From assembly GCF_000016745.1 (NCBI RefSeq), contig NC_009483.1, forward strand, positions 1,950,001-1,982,000: DNA of 32,000 nt. Reading direction: 5' to 3'. Below the pieces are notes generated by a model, which made no database searches, was not told the origin of the DNA, and saw only the letters and a program-made list of their open reading frames with translations. The position numbers and the translations under genes were made by a program. Within the stretch, counting starts at the first letter, position 1. Each line of letters opens with the position of its first letter. The DNA is from Geotalea uraniireducens Rf4 (GTDB taxonomy: Bacteria > Desulfobacterota > Desulfuromonadia > Geobacterales > Geobacteraceae). Shown piece by piece: positions 5,358 through 30,730 of this stretch.

Positions 5358-5361
5358 TGCA

Positions 5362-11595: not shown

Positions 11596-11614
11596 GAGCT
11601 ATTGGAGGGGAAAT

Positions 11615-12757
11615 ATGAGCACTCGACAATATAAAATCTGCACTAATTGTATTATGGATACAAGCGATCCTCGCATAACGTTTGATGAGCGTGGCTGGTG
11701 TGACTATTGTAATAATTTCCACAACAATATCCTTCCTAACTGGCATCCTGATGTCCAGGGAGAAGCAGAACTGATGAAGGTCGCGGCCCAGATACGCAAA
11801 GATGGCGAGGGGAGAGATTTTGACTGTATCATTGGCTTAAGTGGCGGTCTTGATAGTTCCTACTGTACCTACATAGCAAAAGAGAAAATGGGGCTACGCC
11901 CCTTATTGTTTCATGTCGATGCTGGCTGGAATACAGATCAAGCTGTTGGTAACATTGAAAAGCTGGTTGATGGTTTAGGTCTGGACCTGTACACAGAGGT
12001 TATTTATTGGGAAGAGATGAAGGATCTTCAAGTTGCTTTGCTTAAGTCTCAGATAGCGGATCAGGATATCCCACAAGACACGGCTTTCTTTTCCATGCTC
12101 TACAAATTTGCCAGGCAGCATAAAATTAAATATGTGCTTACTGGTGGAAACTACTCAACTGAATGTTGTCGTGAACCCGAAGAGTGGGGGGCTTATCCAG
12201 GTATCGACAAGACCTTAATTAACGATATTCACTCCATGTTTGGAAAGTTGCCGTTAACAACATTCCCTATCGTTGATATTTTCGCCTACAAGATTTACTA
12301 CAAATATGTTTTTGGAATGGAAGTTTTCAGACCACTCAACTATGTGCCGTACGTAAAGCGAGATGCGGAGAAAAAACTTGGTGAACTTTTTGGGTGGGAG
12401 CCGTTTCTACATAAACACCATGAATCGCGTTTTACCCGTTTTTATGAAGATTACTGGATGCCACGTAAATTTGGCTATGAAAAACGCCGTGCCCATCTTT
12501 CCAGCTTGATTATGACCGGGCAAATGACAAGGCAAGAAGCACTTGAGAGAATTGCCAAGCCTGAGCTTGATGAACATTTCCTGCAGCGCGAGTTTGAGTA
12601 TGTTGCGCATAAACTGGATTTGTCCGTTGATGAACTGCAACAGATTTTCGATGGCGAAAACAAGACCTATCATGAATATAAAAATAAAAGATTTTTAATA
12701 GGACTCGGATCAAAGGCAATGACCATGCTGGGACTCGAGAAAAGGTTGTTCAGATGA
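11615..12757 (+). CDS. wbuX: N-acetyl sugar amidotransferase (PP-loop ATPase; WbuX/WbpG/LfnA/PseA type)
   Basis: N-terminal CTNCIMDTSDPRITFDERGWCDYCNNF zinc-ribbon followed by the GLSGGLDSSY PP-loop. It is immediately followed by HisH- and HisF-like genes, the canonical trio. GGAGG RBS. Confidence 0.85.
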   Translation: MSTRQYKICTNCIMDTSDPRITFDERGWCDYCNNFHNNILPNWHPDVQGEAELMKVAAQIRKDGEGRDFDCIIGLSGGLDSSYCTYIAKEKMGLRPLLFHVDAGWNTDQAVGNIEKLVDGLGLDLYTEVIYWEEMKDLQVALLKSQIADQDIPQDTAFFSMLYKFARQHKIKYVLTGGNYSTECCREPEEWGAYPGIDKTLINDIHSMFGKLPLTTFPIVDIFAYKIYYKYVFGMEVFRPLNYVPYVKRDAEKKLGELFGWEPFLHKHHESRFTRFYEDYWMPRKFGYEKRRAHLSSLIMTGQMTRQEALERIAKPELDEHFLQREFEYVAHKLDLSVDELQQIFDGENKTYHEYKNKRFLIGLGSKAMTMLGLEKRLFR

Positions 12758-13368
12758 TTGCAATTATTGATTACGGTTTGGGTAATATCCAGGCATTTGT
12801 GAATGTTTACAACCGTCTTGGTATTCCTACCGCCGTCGCAAAGACTACATATGAACTGGAAACTGCGAATAAATTGATTTTGCCTGGAGTGGGGGCCTTT
12901 GACCATGCCATGGTGTTACTTGATGCCTCCGGCATGAGGCAGGCACTGGACCATTTGGTTCTCAGCAAGAAGGTGCCAATACTTGGCATTTGTGTAGGTA
13001 TGCAGATTTTTGCCAAATCAAGTGAGGAAGGAAAGTTGGATGGATTGGGTTGGATTCCTGGCCGTGTAAGAGCATTCAAATCTGTGCCTGGCGCTACTGA
13101 TTTACCTTTGCCGCATATGGGTTGGAATGATGTCCACGTAACTGGTGAACATAAGTTGTTTAAAGGACTTGAAGAAGAGACTCGCTTTTACTTTTTACAT
13201 TCATATTTCTTTGAGAGTTTGCATCAGGACTCTGTCATTGCAGCCGCTTCTTACGGCATTGATTTTTGCTGCGCTGTACAGTCTGGCAATGTGTATGGGG
13301 TGCAATTCCACCCTGAAAAAAGCCACCACTTTGGTACTGATCTGCTAAAGAATTTCGCGGAGTTATGA
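12754..13368 (+). CDS. hisH: HisH-like glutamine amidotransferase subunit (WbuY-type paralogue, not histidine biosynthesis)
   Basis: IAIIDYGLGNIQAF, the GICVGMQ nucleophile elbow, and FHPEKS. ATGA start/stop overlap with wbuX. Confidence 0.9.
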   Translation: MIAIIDYGLGNIQAFVNVYNRLGIPTAVAKTTYELETANKLILPGVGAFDHAMVLLDASGMRQALDHLVLSKKVPILGICVGMQIFAKSSEEGKLDGLGWIPGRVRAFKSVPGATDLPLPHMGWNDVHVTGEHKLFKGLEEETRFYFLHSYFFESLHQDSVIAAASYGIDFCCAVQSGNVYGVQFHPEKSHHFGTDLLKNFAEL

Positions 13369-13371
13369 GAG

Positions 13372-14151
13372 ATGTTAAGACCCAGAATCATACCATGCCT
13401 GTTGATTCACAAAAACGGGCTTGTGAAGACGGTTAATTTCAAATCACCTAAATATGTGGGTGACCCAATCAACGCGGTCAAAATTTTCAATGAGAAGGAG
13501 TCGGATGAGCTGATTGTTTTGGACATTGACGCCACAGTCAATAACGTTGAGCCAAACTATAAAATGATTGCAAATTTGGCAGCTGAGTGCCGGATGCCTC
13601 TTTGTTACGGCGGCGGTATACGCACTGCCGTGCAAGCAAAAAGGATCATAGGCCTTGGAGTTGAAAAAGTAGCCATAAGTACAGCAGCCGTAGAGACCCC
13701 GCATCTGGTTACTCAAATTTCAGAAGAAATTGGCCGCCAAAGTGTTGTGGTTGTTCTGGATGCCAAAAAACGTCTGCTAAGCAAGGACTATGATGTTTAC
13801 ACACATAACGGTATAAAAAAATCAAAGCATAGCGTATTTGAGATAGTGTCTCAGATCGAAGCGTTGGGCGCTGGTGAAATTGTCATCAATTCAATTGATA
13901 ACGACGGGCAAATGAAGGGTTATGATCTTGAATTGGCTAGACAAATTAAGAAAATGGCACATATTCCCGTTACTATTTTAGGTGGGGCCGGGTCGCTGAA
14001 AGACATCGGCGACTTGATCCGTAATTGTGGCACAATTGGTGCCGCTGCAGGTAGCTTGTTCGTGTTTAAGGGCGTGTATAGGGCTGTGTTGATAAATTAT
14101 CCCAAGCAAGCTGAAAAGGATGATCTTATCCGCGCCAACTATCCGTTTTAA
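13372..14151 (+). CDS. hisF: HisF-like cyclase subunit (WbuZ/AglZ/HisF2-type acetamidino modification protein)
   Basis: RIIPCLLIHKNGLVKTVNF...DELIVLDIDA...GGGIRT...GADKV-like (GVEKVAI)...NSIDNDGQMKGYD...GGAGS. TIM-barrel HisF pattern; third member of the trio. Confidence 0.9.
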   Translation: MLRPRIIPCLLIHKNGLVKTVNFKSPKYVGDPINAVKIFNEKESDELIVLDIDATVNNVEPNYKMIANLAAECRMPLCYGGGIRTAVQAKRIIGLGVEKVAISTAAVETPHLVTQISEEIGRQSVVVVLDAKKRLLSKDYDVYTHNGIKKSKHSVFEIVSQIEALGAGEIVINSIDNDGQMKGYDLELARQIKKMAHIPVTILGGAGSLKDIGDLIRNCGTIGAAAGSLFVFKGVYRAVLINYPKQAEKDDLIRANYPF

Positions 14152-14173
14152 TAACATTGTACTTAGAGGTATT

Positions 14174-15364
14174 ATGAAGACAGTTCTGATTACCGGTTCT
14201 AATGGCTTTGTCGGCAGAAACCTGACCGTCTCTCTTACGCAGCGTAAGAATGTAAAGGTTACCGGCTTCGATGTCGATGACGATCAGACTGTATTGTCAT
14301 CCTTGGTGGCGGGGGCAGACTTTATCTTTCACCTTGCGGGGGTCAATCGTCCGCAGAACGTCGAAGAGTTCACCACAGGGAATACCGGACTGACGCAGAC
14401 GATTGTTTCACTCCTGCAAAAACAGGGTAAAAAGACACCGCTGGTGATCTCCTCTTCTTCCCAGGCGGCACAGGACAACCCTTACGGCATCAGCAAGCGG
14501 GATGCCGAAGATGCCGTCTTCGCCTACGGCCGTCAGACTGGGGCACCGGTATATGTCTACCGCCTGCCGAATGTCTTCGGCAAGTGGTGCCGCCCCAATT
14601 ACAACAGCGCCGTCGCCACGTTCTGCAACAACATCGCCAACGATCTGCCGATCCAGATTAATGATCCGAACATGGTGATGAACCTGGTGTTTATCGACGA
14701 CGTGGTGAATTCGTTCATTGCTGCCCTGGACGGCAGCGTGGCGGTGCAGGATGACTTCTGCCAGGTGCAGCCGGTTCATACAGCCAGGCTCGGTGAGATT
14801 GCCGCGCTGATCCACTCGTTCAGGGAGAGCCGCGAAGATAGAAGCATCCCCGACATCTCTGACCCGTTCACCAAAAAGCTCTACAGCACCTACCTCAGTT
14901 ATCTTCCTGTTGGTCAGTTCAGCTATCCGCTGAAGATGAACGTGGACGAGCGGGGGTCGTTCACCGAGTTCATCAAGACACCCGACCGGGGGCAGGTTTC
15001 GGTGAACATCTCAAAGCCGAGTATCGCCAAGGGGAATCACTGGCACCACACCAAGAATGAAAAGTTTTTGGTGGTGAGCGGGGAGGGCGTAATTCGCTTC
15101 CGGAAAGTCGGCAGCGAAGAGATTATCGAGTATAATGTTTCCGGCGAAAAGCTGGAGGTAGTCGACATTCCGACCGGCTATACTCACAGTATCACCAATA
15201 CCGGCGAAACCGATATGGTCACGGTCATGTGGTGTAACGAGATGTACGACCCGGAAAAACCGGATACGTTTTTCGAACCGGTAAACCTGTATTTAACAGG
15301 GATGAAGGGGATACAAGGGATAACGGCAAAAAACAAGACAAAGACTCTTGGTTTAAATTCATAA
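14174..15364 (+). CDS. fnlB: FnlB/CapF-like bifunctional SDR + cupin enzyme (UDP-L-FucNAc pathway reductase/epimerase)
   Basis: N-terminal MKTVLITGSNGFVGRNL SDR domain plus C-terminal cupin (GNHWHHTKNEKFLVVSGEGVIRF...GYTHSITNTG), the CapF/FnlB architecture. The last ~26 codons ([26 protein letters not shown]) are read from repeat element copy 1. The ORF track start at 14120 overlaps wbuZ; ATG 14174 has an AGAGG RBS. Confidence 0.8.
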   Translation: MKTVLITGSNGFVGRNLTVSLTQRKNVKVTGFDVDDDQTVLSSLVAGADFIFHLAGVNRPQNVEEFTTGNTGLTQTIVSLLQKQGKKTPLVISSSSQAAQDNPYGISKRDAEDAVFAYGRQTGAPVYVYRLPNVFGKWCRPNYNSAVATFCNNIANDLPIQINDPNMVMNLVFIDDVVNSFIAALDGSVAVQDDFCQVQPVHTARLGEIAALIHSFRESREDRSIPDISDPFTKKLYSTYLSYLPVGQFSYPLKMNVDERGSFTEFIKTPDRGQVSVNISKPSIAKGNHWHHTKNEKFLVVSGEGVIRFRKVGSEEIIEYNVSGEKLEVVDIPTGYTHSITNTGETDMVTVMWCNEMYDPEKPDTFFEPVNLYLTGMKGIQGITAKNKTKTLGLNS

Positions 15365-15412
15365 AATGATAAGTCTTTATGCTTTATGGGGTTATATCCC
15401 CTTAATCCCTGT
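15296..15412. repeat. MITE/REP-like hairpin element, copy 1 (GGGAT-nonamer arms)
   Basis: Left arm ACAGGGATGAAGGGGATACAAGGGATAAC, right arm GTTATATCCCCTTAATCCCTGT, with a ~65-nt centre. Complementarity extends outward (CCTGTATTTA / TAAATAAAGG, 15286-15421). Confidence 0.85.
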
Positions 15413-15429
15413 AAATAAAGGGTTCGCTT

Positions 15430-15798
15430 ATGATTCATGAAGAACTCACCGAGAAAATTCTTAAAGCCTGTTTCGAAGTCAGCAATGAACTTGGTTGCGG
15501 ATTTCTTGAGTCAGTCTATCTAAAAGCCCTGTTGATCGCTCTCGCGCAAACAGGTCTGAGAGCTCAGGCACAGACACCACTGACAGTTATGTTTCGCGGT
15601 CAACCGGTCGGAGATTTCTTTCCGGATATTATTGTTGAAGACACAATATTGCTAGAGTTGAAAGCGGTAAAAGCGCTTGCGCCGGAACATCTTGCCCAGG
15701 TTATGAATTACCTGAAAGCAACTGGAATTGAGGTTGGATTTTTAATCAACTTCGGGACACCCAAACTTGAATACCGCCGCTTCGGCAATCGGTTTTAG
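15430..15798 (+). CDS. GxxExxY protein (PD-(D/E)XK nuclease-fold family)
   Basis: 122 aa. GFLESVY matches GxxExxY at residues 24-30. DIIVEDTILLELK gives a D...E-x-K core. Size is typical of the family. Confidence 0.85.
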   Translation: MIHEELTEKILKACFEVSNELGCGFLESVYLKALLIALAQTGLRAQAQTPLTVMFRGQPVGDFFPDIIVEDTILLELKAVKALAPEHLAQVMNYLKATGIEVGFLINFGTPKLEYRRFGNRF

Positions 15799-15825
15799 CA
15801 ACAGCACAAAAGTAAAGGCAACTTA

Positions 15826-15947
15826 ACAGGGATGAAGGGGATGCAGGGGATAACGGCAAAAACAATAGATGCAAGCTTTTGGGGTTAAACCAAAAAGAAG
15901 TTTCTGTGGTTTTAAGATTTCATCCCCTTTATCCCTTTCATCCCTGT
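15826..15947. repeat. MITE/REP-like hairpin element, copy 2
   Basis: ACAGGGATGAAGGGGATGCAGGGGATAAC ... ATCCCCTTTATCCCTTTCATCCCTGT. The centre differs from copies 1 and 3. Confidence 0.85.
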
Positions 15948-16007
15948 GAGATAAAGGTTTTTGCAGTAGTTTTCATGCGTGAATATTAGTGGCTGATAGA
16001 GGTGATT

Positions 16008-16145
16008 ATGAAAAAACTGAAAGTAGTAACAGTAGTCGGTACCCGGCCGGAGATTATCCGCCTCTCCCGTGTGCTTCCCAAGCTGGATCAGTACATGGAG
16101 CACATCCTTGTCCATACCGGCCAGAACTACGACACCCAAACTTGA
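16008..16145 (+). pseudogene. Truncated 5' fragment of a UDP-GlcNAc 2-epimerase (fnlC) gene, joined to the duplicated GxxExxY 3' end
   Basis: Encodes [42 protein letters not shown], then TQT-stop after the junction at 16133/16134. The first 42 codons match the start of the intact gene at 16399 with 10 nt differences. Confidence 0.75.
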
Positions 16146-16203
16146 ATACCGCCGCTTCGGCAATCGGTTTTAGCAACAGCAGCATAAAAGCAAAGGCAAT
16201 TTA

Positions 16204-16329
16204 ACAGGGATGAAGGGGATACAAGGGATACAGGCAAAAACCAAAGACTGTATACTTTTGGGTTAACCAGAGAAGTTCATATTGTTTCTGCTTTTCGAGT
16301 TTTATCCCCTTAATCCCCTTCATCCCTGT
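16204..16329. repeat. MITE/REP-like hairpin element, copy 3
   Basis: ACAGGGATGAAGGGGATACAAGGGATACAGGC ... TTATCCCCTTAATCCCCTTCATCCCTGT. Confidence 0.85.
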
Positions 16330-16398
16330 GAGATAAAGGTTTTTGCAGTAGTTTTAATTCGTGAATATTCATGCCATTCGTGGCTGATTGAGGTGTAT

Positions 16399-17529
16399 AT
16401 GAAAAAACTGAAAGTCATGACTGTAGTGGGAACGAGGCCGGAGATTATCCGCCTCTCCTGTGTGCTTCCCAAGCTGGATCAGTACATGGAGCACATACTT
16501 GTCCATACCGGCCAGAACTACGACTACGAGTTGAACGAGATTTTCTTCACCGATCTGGGTATTCGCCAACCGGACCATTTCCTGGGTGCTGCCGGGGCAA
16601 CCGCAGCGGAGACCATCGGCCAGATTATCATCAAGATCGATCCGCTGCTAGCTGAGGTCAAGCCTGAAGCGTTGCTGGTACTGGGTGACACCAACAGCTG
16701 TCTTGCCGTCATTCCTGCCAAGCGGCGCAAGATTCCCATATTCCACATGGAGGCGGGGAACCGCTGCTTCGACCAGCGGGTGCCGGAAGAGACCAACCGC
16801 AAGATTGTGGATCATACGAGCGACATCAACCTGACCTACAGCGACATCGCCCGCGAATACCTGTTGCGGGAGGGACTCTCCCCAGACCGGGTGATCAAGA
16901 CCGGCTCCCCCATGTTTGAAGTGCTGACCCACTACCGGGAGAAGATCGACAGTTCCGACGTGCTGCAAAAACTTGTACTGGAGGAACAAGGATATTTCGT
17001 GGTCAGTGCCCACCGGGAGGAAAACGTCGATTCCGAGGTTAATTTCAGGAAGATGGTGACCATTTTGAACAGCATCGCGGAAACATACGGCAAGCGGATA
17101 ATCGTCTCCACCCATCCCCGTACTCGCAAGCGGGTGGAAAGCCTTGGGGTGATCTTTCATGAAAAGGTCGAGCTTCTGAAGCCCCTTGGTTTCAGTGATT
17201 ACGTCCACCTCCAGCAGCATTCTTTCGCGGTTCTCTCCGATAGCGGCACGATTACCGAGGAGTCATCGATACTGAATTTCCCGGCGCTGAACATCCGCGA
17301 GGCCCATGAGCGACCGGAGGGAATGGAGGAGGCGAGCGTCATGATGACTGGCCTGGAGTTGGACCGCATCCATCAAGGGCTGGCGGTGCTTGCTGAACAG
17401 AGTAGGGGAGAGAACCGGTTACTGCGGCAGGTTACCGACTACTCCATGCCGAACGTTTCGGACAAGGTCGTGCGGATTATCATCAGCTACACGGATTATG
17501 TGAACCGGACGGTGTGGAAGAAATCCTGA
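16399..17529 (+). CDS. wecB: UDP-N-acetylglucosamine 2-epimerase, non-hydrolysing (WecB family; FnlC/Cap5G type by context)
   Basis: [20 protein letters not shown]...[15 protein letters not shown]...GDTNS...HMEAGNR...HRE EN...DSGT. 376 aa, the length expected for FnlC. The ORF track start at 16282 reads through repeat copy 3. Confidence 0.9.
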
Positions 17530-17531
17530 CG

Positions 17532-18758
17532 ATGCGCATACTGATGCTGACACAATGGTTCGACCCCGAACCTACCTTCAAAGGACTTCCCTTTGCGAAG
17601 GAACTTGCCAAGCGTGGGCACCAGGTCGAGGTGCTTACCGGATTTCCGAACTATCCCGGGGGCGAAGTCTATGACGGATACCGGATACGACCCATGCAGC
17701 GGGAGACTATGGATGGGATATCAGTCTTGCGAGTTCCCCTTTATCCAAGTCATGACACGTCAGCACTCGGGAGAATTGCAAACTATGGAAGCTTCGCGCT
17801 TTCTTCTGCAATTCTGGGAGTATTACTCGCAAAACCTGTCGACCTCATTTATGTTTACCATCCTCCTGCCACTGTTGGCCTGTCGGCAATTGCATTGAGT
17901 TTTTTTCGGAGAGTACCCTTTGTTTACGACATTCAGGACCTCTGGCCGGATACACTGGCCGCTACTGGGATGTTAAACAACGGCGTAGCACTGAGAATGA
18001 TAGCGAAGCTTTGCAGCCATACTTACCGGCTTTCCACCAAGATAGTGGTCCTGTCTCCAGGATTCCGAAAACAACTTATTGCAAGGGGAGTTCCTGCAGA
18101 AAAAATTGAGGTGATTTACAATTGGTGCGATGAGGGGCAAATTCGGGACTCTGCCGGAGATAAGGGCGTGGCCCAGGAACTCGCTTTGTCCGAGAGGTTT
18201 AGCATAGTCTTTGCGGGGACCATGGGGAAGGCTCAGGGCTTGGACGCAGTGCTGGATGCTGCCGCACTTATTGCCGGCAGATATTCAGAGATTCAGTTCG
18301 TTTTTGTCGGGGGGGGGATTGAGGTTGATCGTCTCAAGAAAAGGGCGAAAGACGAAAGTCTCATAAATGTCAAGTTTTTACCGAGACGGCCGGTATCGGA
18401 AATTGGCCCGGTATTGAAGACGGCCGATGTCTTGCTTGTCCACCTGAAAGACGCCCCGCTCTTCAACATCACCATCCCGTCAAAGATCCAGGCTTATATG
18501 GCTGCCGGTCGTCCGATCCTTGTTGCAGTCCGGGGGGATGCAGCCGATCTCGTTGAGAAAGCCAATGCTGGGATGTCCTGCATCCCTGAAGATTCGGAGA
18601 GCATTGCAGCAGCTGTGGAGAAGCTTTACGCCATGCCACGCAATCAGCGGGAGGAACTTGGCGAAAATGGCAGGAAATTTTACGAGAGGGAGCTCTCCTT
18701 GAGAGCGGGCGTCGGCAAATTTGAGGATATATTTCTCTCTGTTGTACGGAAACAATGA
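17532..18758 (+). CDS. wbuB: Family 4 glycosyltransferase, WbuB/WbjE-like (L-FucNAc transferase type)
   Basis: [44 protein letters not shown] is the characteristic WbuB/WcaI-like N-terminus. It sits directly after fnlC, as in known L-FucNAc clusters. Contains a G9 tract at 18309-18317. Confidence 0.85.
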
Positions 18759-19369
18759 AAAAGATGAATTCATTAATCAAACGGATTTTTGATTTCTGTT
18801 CAACACTGGTTGGTCTTGTATTGATCAGCCCGCTGCTTATACCGGTGGCCCTCTTAGTCCGTATGATACATGGTTCGCCGGTCTTGTTCCGTCAGGAGCG
18901 TCCTGGCCTCCATGGCAAGCCGTTCCTCATGCATAAGTTTCGCACCATGACTAATGAGCGGGACGCGAATGGAATTTTGCTGGCCGACGAAGCGCGCTTG
19001 ACCGGCCTCGGCAAATTCCTCCGCAGCACCAGCCTGGACGAGTTGCCGGAACTCTTCAATGTCCTCAAGGGTGACATGAGCCTCGTCGGCCCCCGCCCGC
19101 TTCTTATGGAATACATGCCGCTCTATACCCCGGAGCAAGCCCGCCGCCACGAAGTGAAACCGGGAATAACCGGCTGGGCTCAAGTAAACGGCCGTAACGC
19201 CATCAGTTGGGAAGAAAAATTCAAACTTGACGTCTGGTACGTGGACAATAGCTCTTTCTGGCTGGATTTGAAGATCCTCTGGATGACCTTTTTTCAGGTG
19301 TTTAAACGGGAAGGAATCAGTCAGGAGGGGCAGGCGACAATGGCAAAATTTACAGGGAACAAATTTTGA
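18755..19369 (+). CDS. Small (PglC-type) polyprenyl-phosphate sugar-phosphate transferase, initiating enzyme
   Basis: 204 aa with a single N-terminal re-entrant helix. [38 protein letters not shown] are bacterial sugar transferase motifs. ATGA overlap with wbuB. Confidence 0.9.
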
Positions 19370-19377
19370 AAGCAATG

Positions 19378-19408
19378 TTGGATTTTGAATTGTGGATCGA
19401 ATTTTGGG
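19378..19408. repeat. AT-rich inverted-repeat arm (left) flanking the four-helix-bundle gene
   Basis: ttggattttgaattgtggatcgaattttggg. Blocks attttgaatt and ttttgg are complementary to the right arm at 19771-19807. Confidence 0.7.
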
Positions 19409-19414
19409 TGAGAC

Positions 19415-19768
19415 ATGAAAGAAGACAATATTATTCAGAAGAAAAGCTATGAGTTTGCTCTTCAGGTAATTTCACTTTATCGGAAGCTTTATAAAGCCAA
19501 CGAGTTTGTCTTGTCAAGACAGATCCTCCGGTCAGGGACCAGCATCGGGGCGAATGTTGAGGAAGCCCAGGCTGCACAGAGTAGAGCCGATTTCGTATCG
19601 AAGATGTCAATAGCCTCAAAGGAGGCAAGAGAAACCTGCTACTGGCTACGTCTGCTGCGAGACAGCAACACCATTTCAAAATGTGAGGCCGACGCTCTTT
19701 TGTCAGAAGCGGAATCAATAGTGAATATATTGACATCTATTGTGAAAACAAGCAGCAAATCAAAGTAA
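19415..19768 (+). CDS. Four-helix-bundle protein (23S rRNA intervening-sequence protein / Avd-like family)
   Basis: 117 aa. SYEFALQVISLYRKL...LSRQILRSGTSIGANVEEAQAAQSRADFVSKMSIASKEARETCYWLRLL is the typical family signature (RSxTSIGANIxEA ... KExxET.YWL). Confidence 0.85.
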   Translation: MKEDNIIQKKSYEFALQVISLYRKLYKANEFVLSRQILRSGTSIGANVEEAQAAQSRADFVSKMSIASKEARETCYWLRLLRDSNTISKCEADALLSEAESIVNILTSIVKTSSKSK

Positions 19769-19770
19769 TT

Positions 19771-19807
19771 CAGCATCCAAAATTCAGAATTCAAAATTGG
19801 ATTTTTT
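19771..19807. repeat. AT-rich inverted-repeat arm (right), built of RAATTCA-like heptamers
   Basis: cagcatccaaaattcagaattcaaaattggatttttt. Its reverse complement matches the left arm and the third arm at 20445-20476. Confidence 0.7.
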
Positions 19808-20443
19808 ATGAAAGAAAAAATCTTCGTGTACGGTGCCAGTGGCCATGCCAAGGTTGTGATAGACATCATCGAACGCCAGGGGGTGTACGATATTGCCTTC
19901 CTCGTGGACGATGACCCTGTCCTGAAGGAAACAGATGTTTACGGCTATAGGGTAATTGGTGGCAAGGCAGAACTTCTGGCGCAACGGGAAGAGGTTGCAG
20001 GTGGCATAGTGGCTATCGGGAGCAATAAGGTGCGCGTAAAGGTCGTGGGATGGCTTGCGGAGAATGGCATGTGCCTCGTGTCCGCCGTTCACCCATCTGC
20101 CCAGGTTGCACGCGGCGTTATCCTCGGTGATGGTAACGTGGTCATGGCCGGTGCGGTCATCAACTCGGATACCATTGTCGGGAATAATGTCATTGTCAAC
20201 ACTAGGGCAAGCATTGACCACGACTGCATGATTGGCGACGGTGTGCACATAGCTCCAGGTGCCACTCTGTGTGGAACCGTCACTGTTGGTGAAGGGACAT
20301 TCGTTTGCGCAGGGGCAACAATAATTCCTAATCTGACCGTTGGCGCGCGAGCGATTGTCGGAGCAGGGTCAACTGTCATTGCCAATGTGCCCGACGGTGC
20401 AACGGTTGTGGGAAGTCCGGCTAAGGTGGTGAAACGGTTTTGA
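19808..20443 (+). CDS. NeuD/PglD-family sugar N-acetyltransferase (left-handed beta-helix)
   Basis: IFVYGASGHAKVVIDIIERQG N-terminal domain followed by hexapeptide repeats (GDGNVVMAGAVINSDTIVGNNVIVNTRASIDHDCMIGDGVHIAPGATL...). Confidence 0.85.
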   Translation: MKEKIFVYGASGHAKVVIDIIERQGVYDIAFLVDDDPVLKETDVYGYRVIGGKAELLAQREEVAGGIVAIGSNKVRVKVVGWLAENGMCLVSAVHPSAQVARGVILGDGNVVMAGAVINSDTIVGNNVIVNTRASIDHDCMIGDGVHIAPGATLCGTVTVGEGTFVCAGATIIPNLTVGARAIVGAGSTVIANVPDGATVVGSPAKVVKRF

Positions 20444-20444
20444 G

Positions 20445-20476
20445 TGCTGAATTTAAATTCTTGATTTTGGATTAAC
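20445..20476. repeat. Third copy of the AT-rich arm (left-arm orientation), downstream of the acetyltransferase gene
   Basis: gtgctgaatttaaattcttgattttggattaac. Its reverse complement matches atccaaaattcagaattcaaaattgg at roughly 20 of 26 positions by eye. Confidence 0.6.
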
Positions 20477-20493
20477 TTGGAAGAGGATTTGAT

Positions 20494-21747
20494 GTGAATT
20501 TTAATAAACTAGCCATTGACGGCGGAGAATCAGTCCGTACAACTCCTTTTTCATTATGGCCCTTTTTCGACCGGGACGAAATCGATTCGGTAACCGCTGT
20601 GCTCGCTTCCGGTAAGGTCAACTACTGGACCGGTCAGGAGGGGCGCGAATTTGAAAAGGAGTTCGCTGCCTTCACCGGCTGCAGCCACGCCATCGCCCTG
20701 GCCAACGGCACGGTTGCATTGGAGCTTGCCCTACACGCCCTTGGTATCGGCCACGGCGACGAGGTGATTGTCACCAGCCGCACTTTCATCGCTTCGGCAA
20801 GCTGCATCGTCATTCGCGGTGCAATCCCGGTATTGGCTGAGGTGGACCCGGTTTCCCAGAACGTAACCGCGGAGACGATCCGGACAGCCCTCACTCCCCG
20901 GACGCGGGCGATCATCTGTGTTCACTTGGCCGGCTGGCCTTGCGACATGGACCCGATTCTGGCGCTGGCACGGGAGCACGACTTGAAGGTGATAGAGGAC
21001 TGCGCCCAGTGCCATGGCGCCACCTACAAGGGACGGTCCCTCGGGTCGCTGGGGGATGTGGCTGCCTTCTCATTCTGCCAGGACAAGATAATGACAACCG
21101 GTGGTGAGGGTGGGATGCTGACTACAAATGATGAGACAATCTGGCGAAAAGCATGGGAATACAAGGACCACGGCAAGAGCTTCGACGCGGTGTACAACCG
21201 ACAACATCCCCCCGGTTTTCGCTGGCTGCACGAGTCATTCGGCACCAACTGGCGGCTCACCGAGATGCAGTCGGCTATCGGCCGGGTGCAGCTCCGTAAG
21301 CTCCCCGAGTGGACCCGCATCCGCAATCGTCATGCCGCCATCCTGACCGAAGGTTTCTCAGAAATCCCCGCCCTGAGGGTCACCATTCCCCCGCCGGAGA
21401 TCGGCCACGGGTACTACAAATACTACGTCTTCGTCCGTCCGGAAATGATAAAGCCTGCTTTTATGAGTAACTTAGAACTCAGAACTCGGAACTTAGAACT
21501 GATTTCTCCCCGCGACCGGATCATGGCGGCCATCAATGCCGAGGGGATCCCCTGTTTCAGCGGCAGCTGCAGCGAAATTTACCTGGAAAAGGTTTTCGAC
21601 GGTCTGCGGCCGGTAGAGCGTCTACCAGTGGCGCGTGAACTGGGTGAGACAAGCCTCATGTTCCTGGTGCACCCTACCCTGACGGAGCAGGACATGTTCG
21701 ACACCTGCCGGGCGGTTAAAAAAGTAATGCGAGCCGCTGGCCGCTAG
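20494..21747 (+). CDS. DegT/DnrJ/EryC1/StrS-family PLP-dependent sugar aminotransferase (PglE/WbpE-like)
   Basis: Contains GREFEKEFAAFTG, ALANGTVALELAL, EDCAQCHGA, and FSFCQDKIMTTGGEGGML with the PLP lysine. GTG start after GGAAGAGGA. About 20-30 aa longer than usual because of an in-frame repeat insertion at 21464-21500. Confidence 0.9.
   Translation: MNFNKLAIDGGESVRTTPFSLWPFFDRDEIDSVTAVLASGKVNYWTGQEGREFEKEFAAFTGCSHAIALANGTVALELALHALGIGHGDEVIVTSRTFIASASCIVIRGAIPVLAEVDPVSQNVTAETIRTALTPRTRAIICVHLAGWPCDMDPILALAREHDLKVIEDCAQCHGATYKGRSLGSLGDVAAFSFCQDKIMTTGGEGGMLTTNDETIWRKAWEYKDHGKSFDAVYNRQHPPGFRWLHESFGTNWRLTEMQSAIGRVQLRKLPEWTRIRNRHAAILTEGFSEIPALRVTIPPPEIGHGYYKYYVFVRPEMIKPAFMSNLELRTRNLELISPRDRIMAAINAEGIPCFSGSCSEIYLEKVFDGLRPVERLPVARELGETSLMFLVHPTLTEQDMFDTCRAVKKVMRAAGR
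21464..21500. repeat. Tandem heptamer repeat (TNRGAAC x4-5) lying in frame inside the aminotransferase CDS
   Basis: gagtaac ttagaac tcagaac tcggaac ttagaac, translated SNLELRTRNLEL. Confidence 0.8.
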
Positions 21748-22077
21748 TGTTTAATTGCATAAGTTATTGATGGATTTCTTGATTGCGAACCTTTAAACGT
21801 TGTCTTATTCCATGCAAATCTCTTTTGCCCACCTTCAATACGTCATCATCTCTTCGCATAATCTCCCATCTTTAGAAATCTGTCGGACTCAGGAACGAAT
21901 CCTGCGAGACTAAAAAGTGAGTCCATATTTCCGTAAATTATCGACAAATAGGTCCGCTATTCGCTCTCAAATTTCCGATAATCTGTCCTCGATTTATTTT
22001 CTCGTTACGATTCCCTAAGTCCGACAGGCTCCTGAGAAAACAAGCGATAATTTTTTAGATTAATTTTAAAATTTTAA

Positions 22078-22105
22078 TTGAATTAATTTAACTGACGGGT
22101 ATAAT
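22078..22105 (+). promoter_or_regulatory. Candidate sigma70-type promoter for the pglF-like gene
   Basis: TTGAAT (22078-22083), 16-nt spacer, TATAAT (22100-22105), ~150 nt upstream of the CDS. The region is AT-rich, so a chance match is quite possible. Confidence 0.3.
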
Positions 22106-22253
22106 TTCCCTGTCATGCATATTTGACAAGGTGTTGCTTCTCTGATCGATTATTGCCGGTTTCAGGCGCTTTTCCAATCACATTGTTTGTCTTCCCGTCT
22201 GCTAGTTGGTCGGATTAGTTTTACTATAGATCCTGGTCGCTTTTTAACTGTAT

Positions 22254-24317
22254 GTGTATGATTCCGGTGGTCACTTGAAATCAACTTCCCCTTATACCGG
22301 CAACGCCCTGATCGGCAAGCTGCTTTCCCCGTCTGCGCTGAAGCGTTTTCTCTTCTTTTTCAGCGCTGACCTGCTCATCATTGCGGCTTCTCTTTATCTT
22401 GCCTTATACTTCCGCTTCGATTTTAGGGTGGATGCTCGCTACTTCTCCCTCATCACCGCCGCACTCCCACTGTTTATCGTGATCAAGCTCGCCCTGTTCG
22501 TCGTCTTCCAGGTTTACCATATCACCTGGCGCTTTGTCGGTCTGGATGAGCTTTACAACATAGGGATTGCCATACTGATCGCGGAAGCTGTTCTGATGGC
22601 GCTTCTGCTCACCACATCGACCGGATGGCTTCATCTGTCCCATTACGCGGTTTCCTTTCCGCGCAGCATCTTTATCAATGACGGCCTGATCACCTTCCTG
22701 CTCGCCTGCGGTCTGCGTATCTCGCGCCGTGTCTACCGGGAGGTCATTTTTAAAAAGACCAGTAGCGCGAAGGGTAAGCGGGCGCTGGTCATCGGCGCTG
22801 GTATGACCGGGGAGCTGGTGCTCAGGGACATGGCGCGGCGCGACTTCGCCGACTTTTACCCGGTCGGCATCCTGGACGACGACAGCAGCATGAAGGTCGG
22901 TACCTACATCCACGGCGTGCGGGTTCTGAGCACCACGGACCGTCTGCGCGAGATCGTAAGGCAGCATAGTGTCGAGGTGGTCATCATTGCCATACCTTCC
23001 ACCCACTACAAGGCGTTGCGCAAGATATACCACCTGGCAAAAGAAGCGGGGATTGAGCGGATCAATATCGTGCCCCAGATGTACAAGAACCACGAGCGCT
23101 TCGAAGTGAGCATGAAGGGGATTCACGAGATCAGCATCGAGGAGCTGATTGGCAGGCAGTCTGTGGAGGTGGATTACGACTCCATCGAGCAAATGCTCGC
23201 CGGCAAATCCATCCTCGTATCGGGTGCCTGCGGCTCCATCGGATCGGAGATCGTTCGCCAGGTTTGCAGCTTCAACCCGGCCCGGCTGGTGCTGTTCGAA
23301 ATCGACGAAACCGAGCTGCACAACATGCAGTTGCGGCTGGCTAGGGAGTTTCCCTCACTGTTGGGAAGGATTTACTACGTCGTGGGCGATGTCAGGGACA
23401 GAAGCCGGGTGAGAGGGGTGATGGCGGCCCATGCACCGGAGCTTGTCTTTCACGCCGCAGCCTACAAGCATGTGCCTATGATGGAGCATAATCCCTCGGA
23501 GGCGGTGAAGGTAAATGTCTTCGGCACCTTCAATCTGGCCCAGGCGGCCGTCGACCACGGCGTGGAAAAGTTCGTCATGATCTCGACCGACAAGGCGGTG
23601 CGTCCGACCAGCATCATGGGGGCGACGAAAAGGGTGGCTGAGTATGTCTGCTCTGCCTTCAGCCGCGCCAATGTTACGGAATTCACCTCGGTACGATTCG
23701 GCAATGTGTTAGGGAGCCGCGGCAGCGTCCTGCCGCTGTTCATGGAGCAGTTGAAAAACGGTGGGCCTCTGACTGTTACGGACCGGGAGATGCAGCGCTA
23801 TTTCATGACCATTCCGGAGGCGGTTTCGCTCGTACTGCAGGCGGCCGTCATCGGCAATAACGGCGATGTGATGGTGCTCGATATGGGGGAACCGGTGAAG
23901 GTCGTGGAGCTTGCCGAGGAACTGATCCGGTTGCACGGCCTGAAGCCGTACGACGACATAGCCATCGAATTTGTCGGACTGAGGCCTGGTGAAAAGCTTT
24001 TCGAGGAGATTCTCACTGCCGAGGAGGGGACCGATGCCACCAGGCACGAGAAGATATTCGTCGCGCGCAACGGCAGCTGTCACACCATGGAGCAGCTTGA
24101 TGAGCTATTGCGGGAATTCTCCAGGGTGCCCGAGGTTGCGCCCGGTCTGAATGACCAGCAGTTTGTAAAAGAGCTGCTGATGAAGCATGTGCAGCACTTT
24201 CACGTTCAGCAAAAAATAACTATTTGCCAAGCAACACCGCCTTCAGATTCCGGATCCGCTTTTTTTGCAGATGGACGAGTACCACGTCTAAGAGGGTGCT
24301 TAAGAGGAATGTCGTGA
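22254..24317 (+). CDS. Membrane-anchored UDP-GlcNAc 4,6-dehydratase (PglF/WbpM/CapD family, Polysacc_synt_2)
   Basis: Four or five N-terminal TM helices, a first Rossmann-like domain (ALVIGAGMTGELV), then SGACGSIGSEI, YKHVPMME, STDKAV, MGATKR and FGNVLGSRGSV. The start is uncertain: GTG 22254, or TTG 22275 with GGTGG upstream. Confidence 0.9.
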   Translation: MYDSGGHLKSTSPYTGNALIGKLLSPSALKRFLFFFSADLLIIAASLYLALYFRFDFRVDARYFSLITAALPLFIVIKLALFVVFQVYHITWRFVGLDELYNIGIAILIAEAVLMALLLTTSTGWLHLSHYAVSFPRSIFINDGLITFLLACGLRISRRVYREVIFKKTSSAKGKRALVIGAGMTGELVLRDMARRDFADFYPVGILDDDSSMKVGTYIHGVRVLSTTDRLREIVRQHSVEVVIIAIPSTHYKALRKIYHLAKEAGIERINIVPQMYKNHERFEVSMKGIHEISIEELIGRQSVEVDYDSIEQMLAGKSILVSGACGSIGSEIVRQVCSFNPARLVLFEIDETELHNMQLRLAREFPSLLGRIYYVVGDVRDRSRVRGVMAAHAPELVFHAAAYKHVPMMEHNPSEAVKVNVFGTFNLAQAAVDHGVEKFVMISTDKAVRPTSIMGATKRVAEYVCSAFSRANVTEFTSVRFGNVLGSRGSVLPLFMEQLKNGGPLTVTDREMQRYFMTIPEAVSLVLQAAVIGNNGDVMVLDMGEPVKVVELAEELIRLHGLKPYDDIAIEFVGLRPGEKLFEEILTAEEGTDATRHEKIFVARNGSCHTMEQLDELLREFSRVPEVAPGLNDQQFVKELLMKHVQHFHVQQKITICQATPPSDSGSAFFADGRVPRLRGCLRGMS

Positions 24318-24459
24318 TCGAGGCGGCAAAGATACGCAAGGCTGGCGCTGCAGCGAACAGTGTAAATCCGAGGATGCAGGTTAGTGCAGTACAGCCAAGA
24401 ATCTCGCGGAAATGTAGAGAGCGAATCATGCTATCGGTACAGTTGCTTGCATAAGCCAT
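24220..24459 (-). CDS. Possible small two-helix membrane protein (hypothetical)
   Basis: 79-aa ORF with GAGAGG 9 nt upstream of its ATG. It has two hydrophobic stretches (ILGCTALTCILGFTLFAAAPA, IFAASITTFLLSTLLDVVLV). It overlaps the 3' tail of the convergent pglF-like gene by ~98 nt, which lowers confidence. Confidence 0.3.
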   Translation of the reverse strand: MAYASNCTDSMIRSLHFREILGCTALTCILGFTLFAAAPALRIFAASITTFLLSTLLDVVLVHLQKKRIRNLKAVLLGK

Positions 24460-24573
24460 TCTTTGATGCCTCTCGACTTTTTACTACTTTTCGGCGATAT
24501 GGTCGATATACTTGAGTGTGTCTGGTTAGAAAATTGCACTGGCTCTCCAAGCCATAAAACCCAGCACATTGCA

Positions 24574-24672
24574 CCCTCCCCCAACCCCTCCTTTAGGCCC
24601 TTTGGGTCCATCAAGGGAGGGGAGCTTTAAAGTCCCCTCGCCCCTTGTGGGAGAGGGCTAGGGTGAGGGGGG
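24574..24672. repeat. G/C-rich REP-like element with two hairpins
   Basis: ccctcccccaacccctcc...gggaggggag and cccctcgccccttgtgggagagggctagggtgagggg. C-run/G-run arms pair: CCCCTCC 24585-24591 with GGAGGGG 24616-24622, and CCCCTC 24634-24639 with GAGGGG 24665-24670. Confidence 0.55.
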
Positions 24673-24757
24673 AAGTGCGGTTGTAAAAACCTAATCGGAC
24701 AGTGCTGGATACACTTCAGTTTTATTATCCATGGCCTGAGAAGTCAAGCAGGTCAAT

Positions 24758-24785
24758 AAAAACGGGCGGGAGTCTTCCCGCCCGT
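24758..24785 (-). terminator. Rho-independent terminator of the glgP-rarA-pfkA transcription unit
   Basis: On the - strand: ACGGGCGGGA-AGAC-TCCCGCCCGT followed by TTTTT, starting 34 nt after the pfkA stop. Confidence 0.75.
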
Positions 24786-24819
24786 TGCCGTTTCCATGCC
24801 GGTTTTCCCCAAATGTAAC

Positions 24820-25779
24820 TTAAATCCCCAATACCTCCGCTAGTCGCAGCATCTCGTCTTGTGGGCGCTTTTCGCCTTTGATTACGTCTTCGAGGGGGGT
24901 TGCAATGATGGCGTTGCACGAGAGGCCGACCATCAGCCCTTGCTGCCCCGATATGAGGAGCTCGACCGCTTTTTTGCCGAGGCGGCTTGCCAGGAGCCGG
25001 TCAAAGACAGTCGGTGCGCCGCCGCGCTGGTAATGGCCGAGCACCGTAACCCTCGTCTCGAAGCCGATGGCATCCTTGATGCTGTCGGCAATATGCTGGG
25101 CGTTGCCCGCCCCTTCGGCGAGGATGATTATGGCGTTGTCCCGCCCCTCTTCGTAGCGGGCTCTGAGCTGCTGGCAGATCTCGGAGAGGTCGAACTCCCG
25201 TTCCGGCACCAGGGCGAATTCGGCGCCGGTGGCGATGGCGCTGACGCTTGCCAGGTAGCCGGAGTTGCGCCCCATCACCTCGATTACGAAGGCGCGGGCA
25301 TGTGAGCTTGCGGTGTCTTTGATGCAGTCCACAGCATAGATGATGTTGTTGAGTGCAGTATCGACCCCCAGCGCCATGTCCGTGAAGGGGATGTCGTTGT
25401 CGATGCTGGCGGGAATGCCTATGACCGGGAAACCGAGGCGGTGGAGGGCGAGCGCCCCGGTCAGCGATCCGTCGCCGCCGAGGATGACGAGCCCCTCGAC
25501 ACCGAGGTTTCGCAGGTTGTCGAGGGCCTTTTGCTGTCCTTCCGGGGTGCGGAATTCCTGTGAGCGGGCCGACTGGAGGAAGGTGCCCCCCCGGTGGAGG
25601 ATGCCGGAAACCGACTTGGAGTCGAGGGTGATGCCGTCACCTTTCATGAGCCCCAGGTAGCCCTTGCGAAAACCGACCATTTCAATGTTCATCCGGAGTC
25701 CCGTGCGTACCGCGCTGCGAATGGTGGCGTTCATGCCGGAGCAGTCGCCGCCGCTGGTCAATATGCCGATCTTTTTCAT
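24820..25779 (-). CDS. pfkA: ATP-dependent 6-phosphofructokinase
   Basis: MKKIGILTSGGDCSGMNATIRS, GGDGS, IPASIDNDI, MGRNSGYLA, GHYQRGG. Canonical PfkA motifs; 319 aa. Confidence 0.95.
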   Translation of the reverse strand: MKKIGILTSGGDCSGMNATIRSAVRTGLRMNIEMVGFRKGYLGLMKGDGITLDSKSVSGILHRGGTFLQSARSQEFRTPEGQQKALDNLRNLGVEGLVILGGDGSLTGALALHRLGFPVIGIPASIDNDIPFTDMALGVDTALNNIIYAVDCIKDTASSHARAFVIEVMGRNSGYLASVSAIATGAEFALVPEREFDLSEICQQLRARYEEGRDNAIIILAEGAGNAQHIADSIKDAIGFETRVTVLGHYQRGGAPTVFDRLLASRLGKKAVELLISGQQGLMVGLSCNAIIATPLEDVIKGEKRPQDEMLRLAEVLGI

Positions 25780-25834
25780 GCTGCCTCCACTTGATTCGCT
25801 TATAAATTGTTTATCACAGCAACGGGACGCAGAC

Positions 25835-27142
25835 TTACTTTTTCCCTTTCAGCCACTCCATCCGTTCCTTTATGCTCTTTTCGTAACCATGTCCTGTCGG
25901 GTCATAGTATTTCCGCCCTTTGATCTGGTCCGGCAGGTAGTCCTGCGCCACATACCCTTCGGCGTAATCGTGGGCGTAACGGTAACCTGTGCCGTATCCA
26001 AGATCTTTCATGAGTCTGGTCGGCGCGTTACGGATGTGGAGCGGGACCGGAAGGGCGCCGCTTTTCCGCACCTCGGCGAGCGCTGCGTCGATCCCGACGT
26101 AAGAGGCGTTGGACTTGGGGGCGGTGGCCAGGTAGGTGACCGCCTGGCCGATGATAATCCGCCCCTCCGGCATCCCAACCAGCTGGAACCCCTGCAGCGC
26201 CGTCACTGCCACCTGGAGCGCCCGGGGGTCTGCGTTGCCGATATCCTCCGAGGCGAGGATCACCATGCGCCGCAGGATGAAAATCGGGTCTTCGCCCGCC
26301 TCGATCATCCGCGCCAGCCAGTAGAGCGCCCCATCCGGGTCGCTGCCGCGCATGGACTTGATGAAGGCGGAGATGACGTTATAGTGCTCCTCCCCACCCT
26401 TGTCGTAGAGAAGCGGCTTTTTCTGCACCGCCTCGCGGGCTGTATCAAGGGAGACGACGCCGTTGCTCGTCAGTCTGGACGCGGTTTCCAGGGTATTGAG
26501 GGCTACCCGCGCATCGCCTCCCGCCTGTTCGGCCATGAAGGTGAGAGCGTCGTCTTCGATGGCAAGGTCCAGGGCGCCGAGCCCCCGCTCTTTGTCGGCA
26601 AGGGCCTGGCGCAGGATCCCCGTGATTTCTTCTTCCGTCAACGGATTGAGAACGAGCACCTTGCAGCGGGAGAGAAGGGGGGCGATCACCTCGAAGGAGG
26701 GGTTTTCGGTGGTGGCGCCGATGATGGTGAAGACCCCCCTTTCCACATAGGGGAGAAAGGCATCCTGCTGGCTCTTGTTGAAGCGGTGGATCTCGTCGAC
26801 GAAGAGAATGGTTCTTTTGCCGTGGAATTTGCGGATATCATCCGCTTCCTTGACGATTTCGCGGATCTCCTTGATGCCGGAGAGGATGGCGGAGAAGAAG
26901 ATGAAGTGCGACTTGGTGGCGCCGGCGATGATGCGGGCAAGGGTCGTCTTGCCCGAACCCGGTGGGCCCCAGAAGATGAGGGAGGTGAGCTGGTCGGTCT
27001 CGATCAGTTGACGGAGAAGCTTCCCCGGGCCTAAGAGGTGCTCCTGGCCGACGTATTCGGCCAGGGTTCGGGGACGCATCCGTTCGGCGAGAGGGGCTTC
27101 CTTCAGGGTGTCGGCTGCGGCTTTACGGTCGAAGAGGTCCAT
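25835..27142 (-). CDS. rarA: Replication-associated recombination protein A (AAA+ ATPase RarA/MgsA)
   Basis: [21 protein letters not shown], Walker [33 protein letters not shown], and the MgsA C-terminal domain ([27 protein letters not shown]). Confidence 0.95.
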
Positions 27143-27144
27143 GG

Positions 27145-30644: not shown

Positions 30645-30650
30645 AACCCA

Positions 30651-30721: not shown

Positions 30722-30730
30722 GGATTTCAA

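Follow-up and report, generated by a model that had tools for sequence, protein, structure and literature searches.

Proteins of the PF05635 family are known from intervening sequences (IVSs) of 23S rRNA, and the locus described here raises the question of what a gene for such a protein is doing between two cistrons of a bacillosamine-type glycan operon, with partly complementary arms on either side of it. The locus lies in a 32,000-nt stretch of the genome of Geotalea uraniireducens Rf4 (RefSeq assembly GCF_000016745.1, contig NC_009483.1, positions 1,950,001 to 1,982,000 of the forward strand), hereafter the window, and all coordinates are positions within it. Our answer is that the region of about 19373-19800 is very probably an inserted cassette of a kind typical for this protein family. 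Less firmly, we consider it the probable explanation of the whole that this is a promoter-less cassette of the IVS type, whose stem acts in the transcript of the host operon.

The evidence for an insert comes from the junction that the gene occupies, between a PglC-like phosphoglycosyl transferase gene (Bac_transf; 18755-19369, +; PF02397, E = 1e-68) and a PglD-like acetyltransferase gene (PglD_N plus hexapeptide repeats; 19808-20443, +; PF17836 and PF00132). Relatives of this operon show the junction in three states. In a metagenome operon with the order GT4-pglC-pglD-degT-pglF, about 70% identical (L085), the pglC|pglD junction is empty and consists of 17 nt, TGA-acaattctggattattt-ATG. In a Geobacter metagenome-assembled genome (L005) the same small gene, at 80% identity, is present at pglC|pglD, and the right joint reads ...caaaattggattttttATG as in the window. 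In a third operon (L084), whose pglD is 76% identical, the junction holds a GxxExxY (PF13366) gene between three copies of a 170-nt hairpin repeat. The C-terminus of pglC and its stop context are the same in the empty-site orthologue as in the window, where the stop codon falls within AAATTTTGA, a heptamer-like unit in its own right. With one relative having no gene at the junction, one the same gene and one a different gene, the comparison shows that the small gene is an inserted cassette and not a glycan enzyme. An earlier note on this DNA, written from the sequence alone, had drawn the same conclusion and had proposed a comparison with strains lacking the insert; the empty junction of L085 is a case of this kind in a related operon.

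Homologues elsewhere are found between the cistrons of unrelated operons. Using a profile of close homologues against one-genome-per-species contigs, we obtained 80 loci whose proteins share 57-84% amino acid identity with the window protein, from more than 10 phyla (Desulfuromonadota, Desulfobacterota, Bacteroidota, Chloroflexota, Chlorobiota, Acidobacteriota, Verrucomicrobiota, Planctomycetota, Elusimicrobiota and others). In 62 of 73 loci the gene points the same way as both of its neighbours, the median spacer being about 50 nt long, and the neighbours include preT and preA (the two dihydropyrimidine dehydrogenase subunits), an HlyD-type adaptor and an AcrB-type pump, a thiolase and an acyl-CoA dehydrogenase, and polysaccharide genes. 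Zhang et al. reported 18 23S_rRNA_IVP genes within cas operons, one example being a gene that separates cmr3 from cmr2, and suggested a possible association with CRISPR (PMC3936711), and Tsurumaki et al. described IVP open reading frames (ORFs) in insertions at several 16S and 23S rRNA sites in bacteria of the candidate phyla radiation (PMC11270868).

These contexts bear on the alternative that the bacillosamine-type glycan pathway uses the small protein as a dedicated accessory factor. Its gene is indeed co-oriented with the pglC-pglD-degT-pglF module, in the order GT4 glycosyltransferase, PglC-like, small gene, PglD-like, DegT-family aminotransferase (20494-21747, +, by Pfam) and PglF-like dehydratase (22254-24317, by Pfam). 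However, the orthologous operon L085 does without it, L084 has a different gene at the same spot, and homologues at the identities given above stand in efflux, pyrimidine-catabolism, beta-oxidation and other operons, as well as in the reported cas operons and rRNA genes. We give a pathway function almost no credence and regard it as effectively excluded.

The cargo gene (19415-19768, +) encodes a 117-aa protein of the S23p / 23S rRNA IVS protein family, which scores above the curated cut-offs of both PF05635 (23S_rRNA_IVP; E = 1e-27, 96.9 bits, cut-off 33.8) and TIGR02436 ('four helix bundle protein'; E = 2e-30, 105.3 bits, cut-off 24). The Geotalea (Geobacter) uraniireducens protein is 100% identical to it. 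A profile of its homologues matches the sequence of the solved structure 2rld (E = 2.8e-39), an entry with five chains. Compared with homologues, the ratio of nonsynonymous to synonymous substitution rates (dN/dS) is 0.07-0.12 at dS = 1.2-1.9, and on this basis the protein is functional and under purifying selection. A scan of 18700-20700 found no sigma-70-like promoter and no intrinsic terminator, and the short G+C-rich hairpin with a T run that marks a terminator or attenuator does not occur there. An Rfam scan of the whole window gave no family match and no rRNA.

The arms that enclose this gene are tandem arrays of heptamers. The left arm (19373-19410, +) is a degenerate array of the G type (AATGTTG GATTTTG AATTGTG GATCGAA TTTTGGG) that ends 4 nt upstream of the cargo ATG, and the right arm (19768-19800, +) is an array of the C type (TTCAGCA TCCAAAA TTCAGAA TTCAAAA TTG), which is the left-arm type in reverse complement. 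A repeat finder pairs 19373-19397 with 19775-19799 as complementary over 25 nt at 84%, and if a 4-nt gap is allowed the terminal repeat reads TTTTGAATTgTG(gatc)GAATTTTGGgTG against the right-arm reverse complement TTTTGAATTcTG----AATTTTGGaTG. Measured as matches of the sequence with itself at a lag of 7 nt, the periodicity is clear in the right arm (16/21) and degenerate in the left (13/21).

We compared the arms with 1000 dinucleotide shuffles of the spacers themselves. The left-right local alignment score is 17 against 8.2±1.6 in the shuffles (P about 0.001), and the duplex energy is -27.0 against -15.5±3.0 kcal/mol, with 0 of 1000 shuffles as good; other spacer pairs of the window score 4-9. 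Motifs of the GGATTTTGA type occur, within the operon, in no spacers but the three that adjoin the small gene or pglD. A 14-nt form, TTGGATTTTGAATT, searched for with at most 3 mismatches, has 9 matches in the window where 6.6 are expected, which is no significant enrichment. The arm signal is one of clustering and complementarity, not of motif count. Could such complementarity be a chance product of A+T-rich, low-complexity spacers? The spacers are A+T-rich, the 14-nt motif is no commoner than expected, and the pairing energy of a third array, in the pglD|degT spacer, is not significant; the left-right pair nevertheless stands outside the shuffles and the other spacer pairs, and the same architecture recurs in 54 independent contexts. 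Chance has a negligible claim as an explanation, and we treat it as effectively excluded.

The recurrence was assessed by comparing 70 nt on each side of every gene in the survey loci. These loci were picked by protein similarity and partly share ancestry, for which we corrected by collapsing them to 54 neighbour-family contexts, and a heuristic was used to set their gene starts. Upstream of most genes stand tandem heptamers of the TTTTGAA, TTTTGAG, ATGTTGA, TTTTAAA or TTTTGGA type, and downstream of most stands the reverse complement (TTCAAAA, CTCAAAA, TTCAACA or TCCAAAA), in arrays usually about 4-6 units long. The flanking inverted repeat lies above the 95th percentile of shuffled flanks in 62% of 77 loci. 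Where the earlier note proposed a survey of paralogues within the genome, this survey across genomes finds flanking inverted repeats at homologues as well. Particular variants are common to both arms of a locus (GAG/CTC in L043, GGA/TCC in L031, TTATGAG/CTCATAA in L074, AAAAATT/AATTTTT in L076), and arms pair better with their own partner than with the arm of another locus (p = 2.6e-6), and therefore the heptamer variant co-varies between the two arms. More distant paralogues in the survey loci carry other units, TAAGTAT/TACTTAA in L063 and GGTCGTT in L032.

The period of these arrays is exactly 7. At least 17 of 21 self-matches are reached by 47% of flanks at lag 7 and by at most 0.6% at lags 4-6 and 8-12; at least 16 of 21 are reached by 71% of gene-adjacent spacers versus 19% of other spacers in the same loci, and at the 18/21 threshold the same comparison gives a Fisher odds ratio of 5.1 (p = 3e-7). 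Polarity is fixed, with 49 G-type versus 4 C-type upstream flanks and 38 C-type versus 12 G-type downstream flanks, and the reverse configuration, C-type upstream with G-type downstream, was never seen among the survey loci. For the 80-nt flanks of a gene, the median number of base pairs expected between one and the other is 24.4, versus 5.8 in shifted control segments (p = 1e-12), and 69% of the 54 distinct contexts have at least 15 predicted closing base pairs. Set beside these loci, the window arms are a degenerate copy of a family-wide heptamer design, whose layout, strict 7-nt period and fixed polarity are seen in about two thirds of the 77 loci.

The arms are part of the conserved unit. 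When the window cassette is aligned with homologues from other contexts (L004, L006, L007), homology begins some 20 nt before the ATG, takes in the right arm completely and ends at ...CAAAATTG; the right arm is homologous to that of L005-L007 as far as the same ...CAAAATTG. Judged by eye in the alignment with homologues, the arms are about 85% identical between cassettes although dS is 1.2-1.9, and their conservation thus goes well beyond neutral expectation. Many homologues of 127-134 aa, L005-L007 among them, lack a stop codon ahead of the right arm, and their ORF continues across the C-type heptamers, which add a low-complexity tail (3330-3387 in L005, equivalent positions in L006 and L007); in the window a TAA at 19766-19768 terminates the protein just ahead of the right arm. 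At the edges of the insert a 9-nt direct repeat, TTGGATTTT, is found once in the left arm (19378-19386, +) and once just before the pglD ATG (19797-19805, +), where the junction caaaattggattttttATG is the one also present in L005. The empty site of L085 has one related copy, CTGGATTAT. The pair overlaps the heptamer arrays and may reflect either target-site duplication or recombination inside a heptamer-like target.

In predicted folds of 19361-19810 the arm stem closes the cassette in both the minimum-energy and the centroid structures. When the transcript context was varied (11 contexts of 450-1850 nt), the left-right stem formed in 8 with about 24 expected base pairs at near 100% probability, although long-range RNA folding predictions of this kind vary with the context chosen. 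The arms (25 nt, 84%) thus provide a predicted terminal stem of the 20-30 bp class with an ORF enclosed. In these respects the earlier note was accurate: its coordinates and sequences are as it gave them, the 117-aa gene lies between genes that Pfam assigns to pglC and pglD, the flanking arms are partly complementary beyond dinucleotide shuffles, their pairing is thermodynamically meaningful in the folds, and the arrangement of an ORF in the loop of a long stem is the layout of ORF-bearing 23S rRNA IVSs.

The likeness to those IVSs, known from Leptospira and Coxiella burnetii, extends to several features. The Coxiella IVS is a 428-nt element in helix 45 of 23S rRNA. A terminal stem of 28 bp encloses its S23p ORF, two to three GACAGAT heptamers stand in tandem immediately before the ATG, and cleavage of the element by RNase III has been demonstrated in vitro and mapped by rapid amplification of cDNA ends (PMC4990558). 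Shared with the window are the PF05635 cargo, the ORF in the loop of a stem of terminal inverted repeats, the sense orientation in the host transcript, the sporadic distribution that suggests horizontal spread (PMC4990558), and tandem heptamers directly before the ATG, which are degenerate in the window and clear in its homologues. The differences are that the host transcript is rRNA there and a protein-coding operon here, the window insert lying between two protein-coding genes and not within a helix of a 23S or 16S rRNA gene; that the unit is GACAGAT in Coxiella and of the TTTTGAA type here; and that Coxiella S23p is decaying and apparently untranslated, whereas the window protein shows strong purifying selection. 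Cleavage by RNase III is demonstrated for the Coxiella IVS, and by analogy with it we consider processing of the operon mRNA at the arm stem plausible, though somewhat short of probable. Full-text searches of an incomplete library gave no paper linking family members outside rRNA to inverted heptamer arrays or to a general habit of insertion between cistrons, and a prior description is possible.

We propose the following sequence of events. An ORF-bearing cassette without a promoter (19373-19800), of the type known from 23S rRNA IVSs and consisting of a 5' array of the TTTTGAA type, an S23p/PF05635 gene and a complementary 3' array of the TTCAAAA type, would have entered the 17-nt pglC|pglD spacer in the direction of the operon. 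In the operon transcript the arms would pair into a duplex of about 24 bp with the small gene looped out, and this duplex would be a substrate for RNase III, as in rRNA IVSs, or would at least insulate the insert structurally. Such cutting or insulation would explain why cassettes are tolerated both between cistrons and inside rRNA helices. The small gene would be expressed by riding on transcription of the host operon, and, as DNA, the inverted arrays are probably also the substrate on which the cassette is gained and lost, by recombination at sequences that resemble heptamers, for instance TTGGATTTT.

The operon contains one further array, a weak solo array of the G type in the pglD|degT spacer (20445-20476, +; lag-7 11/21, degenerate). 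The earlier note had seen in it a third arm, so that the right arm could pair either way and enclose the small gene or the acetyltransferase gene. The third arm is real in the sequence, with 19775-19795 and 20452-20472 complementary over 21 nt at 86% (score P = 0.009); its duplex energy with the right arm, -18.4 kcal/mol, is no better than that of shuffles (P = 0.18). The alternative pairing fares poorly, amounting to just 8 bp in 3 of the 11 folding contexts, those ending near the third arm, where GUGCUGAA at 20444-20451 takes over the pairing of the right arm's first 8 nt. The pglD|degT spacer also holds G-type arrays in L085 (ttttgagttttgaatgttgaa) and L084 (gttttggattttatattttgaattg), and other spacers of the related operons L085, L084 and L005 hold none. 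Because the array occurs at pglD|degT irrespective of whether a cassette fills pglC|pglD, it is a solo array conserved in position and not a dedicated alternative partner. Of the interpretation in that note, the insert and the stem layout are supported, and the two-way pairing of the right arm is poorly supported. A separate heptamer array is found within degT itself, where a 45-nt in-frame insertion at 21463-21507 consists of five AACTYAG heptamers (the reverse complement being of the TTCTGAG/TTCTAAG type) and adds 15 aa (MSNLELRTRNLELIS) that are not in the 71%-identical L085 orthologue. It has no complementarity to any of the three arms, which rules out a pairing of the third arm with it.

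Several observations weigh against a stem-based cassette as proposed here. About one third of the homologous loci have no convincing inverted pair, some (L004, L011, L071) have arrays of the same orientation on both sides, and there are solo arrays with no partner arm, which point to a function or an origin of the arrays independent of pairing. Folded by itself, the 450-nt segment does only modestly better than its shuffles (z = -1.8), and in 3 of the 11 folding contexts other pairings displace the left-right stem. Mismatches in the family arm alignments are G:T in 48 cases and A:C in 59 (p = 0.33), with other types about as common, so that the absence of a G·U excess over A·C leaves selection for a sense-strand RNA helix undemonstrated. 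A target-site duplication at the insert (TTGGATTTT) would be indistinguishable from array homology, and a Pfam scan of the window region found no recombinase or transposase associated with the cassette.

Part of this evidence would suit arms that act at the DNA level with no RNA role, as terminal inverted repeats of a mobile cassette resembling a miniature inverted-repeat transposable element (MITE), moved in trans or by recombination between arrays. MITEs, and repetitive extragenic palindromes (REPs) and their doublets (REPINs) with REP-associated tyrosine transposases (RAYTs), resemble the window locus in that a gene is flanked by inverted short repeats, which also occur elsewhere as hairpin doublets with no gene. 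RAYTs, however, are HUH transposases present in single copy, and the cargo here, a four-helix bundle, is multi-copy and has no known catalytic activity; the arms of REP/REPIN systems are single palindromes, whereas those of the window are tandem heptamer arrays. As in transposons and MITEs, the window arms are terminal inverted repeats, and they lie within a unit conserved across contexts. A junction seen filled, empty and alternatively filled, a direct repeat on both sides of the insert, arm mismatches with no bias to G·U over A·C, and the existence of gene-less arrays and hairpin elements whose copy number varies between samples, one array being in frame in degT, all speak for this alternative.

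So do the paired oligomer arrays of G. metallireducens, which lie about 100 nt apart with no gene between them and were described by Aklujkar et al. 2009 as pairs on opposite strands and proposed sites of IHF/HU (PMC2700814). They comprise the octamers GTTGCTYN x4 and TCTCCGTS[Y] x3 and the heptamers MTYCTGA x5 (PMC2700814); the last, 'class 3' (TTCTGAATTCTGAA...), is the heptamer class of the window, in the same genus group, and the pairs likewise occupy intercistronic spacers, such as moaA|mosC and proB|proA. They differ in being gene-less, whereas the window arrays enclose a gene, and no connection with four-helix-bundle genes was drawn for them. Against arms confined to DNA, no transposase or recombinase is encoded or adjacent, orientation is strongly biased towards host transcription (62 of the 73 loci) with the arm polarity fixed relative to the gene, and the one relative studied by experiment, the Coxiella IVS, is processed as RNA at exactly such a stem; DNA and RNA roles are moreover not mutually exclusive. 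We regard the DNA-only alternative as unlikely.

The strict period suggests a further alternative, in which the arrays are protein-binding sites in 7-nt register and the complementarity of the arms is secondary. The candidate binders are the pentameric four-helix-bundle protein itself, IHF/HU as in Aklujkar's proposal, and S1 or CsrA, which were proposed for the TAACTGA repeats. The latter are direct heptamer repeats described by MacGregor 2015 in Beggiatoaceae, Cyanobacteria and Bacteroidetes, just upstream of start codons (PMC4679880). They resemble the solo third arm in being forward heptamers with stop triplets, a few nt before start codons and patchy across phyla, and differ in unit, in forming direct arrays only (one inverted case is reported) and in having no PF05635 association. 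Binding sites would accommodate a period of strictly 7 with a unit that differs by subfamily (TTTTGAA here, TAAGTAT and GGTCGTT in distant paralogues, GACAGAT in Coxiella), arrays that stop just short of start codons, and solo arrays conserved in position at pglD|degT. They would also accommodate unit numbers near five: arrays have about 4-6 units, 15 of 16 'class 3' sites of G. metallireducens have five (PMC2700814), and four-helix bundles of the X. campestris homologue assemble into a homopentamer, as cited in PMC4990558. Independent sites, however, require neither the co-variation of arm variants within a locus nor the long predicted stems, and the upstream polarity has a simpler reason on offer in the TGA or TAA that G-type units contain in every frame. 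We consider binding with incidental complementarity improbable. Both the DNA-level and the protein-binding explanations fit much of the evidence, and neither is exclusive of a role in RNA.

A link with diversity-generating retroelements (DGRs) was considered through Avd, the DGR accessory protein, which PF05635 resembles (PMC10053308). The two share a fold and superfamily (cd16375), and the family forms pentameric rings of four-helix bundles. A DGR has an adjacent reverse transcriptase with template and variable repeats. No reverse transcriptase occurs within about 5 kb, all ORFs in 14120-24317 carrying other Pfam assignments, and a repeat scan of the window, not aimed specifically at template and variable repeats, gave no obvious pair of that kind. 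The window gene differs from Avd in standing alone between housekeeping cistrons.

The GxxExxY family, which occupies the pglC|pglD junction in L084, also supplies a second small insert in the window. A gene of this PD-(D/E)XK family (PF13366; 15430-15798, +) lies between a capD-like gene and wecB (region 15283-16342), with three copies of a hairpin element of ~9-nt units (ACAGGGATGAAGGGGATACAAGGGATAA ... TTATCCCCTTAATCCCCTTCATCCCTGT) at about 15296-15413, 15826-15947 and 16199-16334. A tandem duplication of ~375 bp (15756-16130 and 16131-16524) spans the 3'-terminal 51 nt of the GxxExxY gene (100% identical copies), one hairpin element (78-88%) and the first ~125 nt of wecB (91%), and leaves a truncated 5' copy of wecB fused to the 3' end of the GxxExxY gene, with the joint at the microhomology GAC. 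In metagenome contigs (L094-L103) with a GxxExxY gene 93% identical to that of the window, the window-type hairpin element flanks the gene in a gmd-[GxxExxY]-fcl-manC operon, and its tandem copies vary by sample, 1 versus 2 after the gene and 2 versus 1 in the next spacer, which has no small gene; we therefore infer recent gain or loss of the hairpin unit. Both cassette types occur in one operon in the window and in two Bacteroidota loci of Chitinophagaceae type, where the GxxExxY gene (L048, 1170-1577; L025, 1012-1446) lies one spacer upstream of the four-helix-bundle junction, the L048 copy having inverted flanks of the ACGGAT/ACAGAT type. A scan of viral contigs for GxxExxY relatives gave no confirmed matches. 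The PADLOC and PHROGs libraries gave zero matches for either small protein, and a defence-system reading of the two is accordingly without support.

Other features of the window were noted. A near-perfect palindrome at 30651-30722, GTTCTAC x4 facing GTAGAAC x5 with 2 nt between the arms, lies between the convergent ORFs 29712-30644 (+) and 30668-31447 (-) and forms a gene-less inverted heptamer pair with a different unit. Two repeats about 4.7 kb apart (5382-5455 and 10050-10123, 74 nt, 91%; 5494-5633 and 10195-10334, 140 nt, 71%) lie, in both copies, across or downstream of the 3' ends of ORFs 4128-5357 and 8895-10247. The G+C content is 32-47% over most of 1-14000 and 50-65% over 14400-32000, a contrast consistent with a horizontally acquired variable part of a polysaccharide locus.

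The nature and origin of rRNA IVSs has been a standing question since about 1990, and the PF05635 family, with thousands of members, has to our knowledge no known function outside DGRs. A bold generalization, which we offer tentatively and consider on the whole doubtful, is that PF05635 genes with their inverted heptamer arrays are pan-bacterial, promoter-less selfish cassettes of intercistronic spacers, of which the rRNA IVS would be a special case. The pentameric protein would read the 7-nt register of its own arrays, in RNA or single-stranded DNA, for processing or movement, and GxxExxY genes with hairpin arrays of 8-9-nt period would form a parallel class competing for the same sites. If the bracketed cassette is general, the IVS would be just one of the places at which a far larger family of mobile elements inserts, and the 'association' of these genes with cas operons or glycan loci would reflect insertions and not functional links, which matters for annotation by guilt of association. 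RNase III cleavage at heptamer stems in mRNAs and binding of the protein to 7-nt repeats would then be testable hypotheses, and by splitting polycistronic mRNAs such inserts could alter the stoichiometry of operon products.

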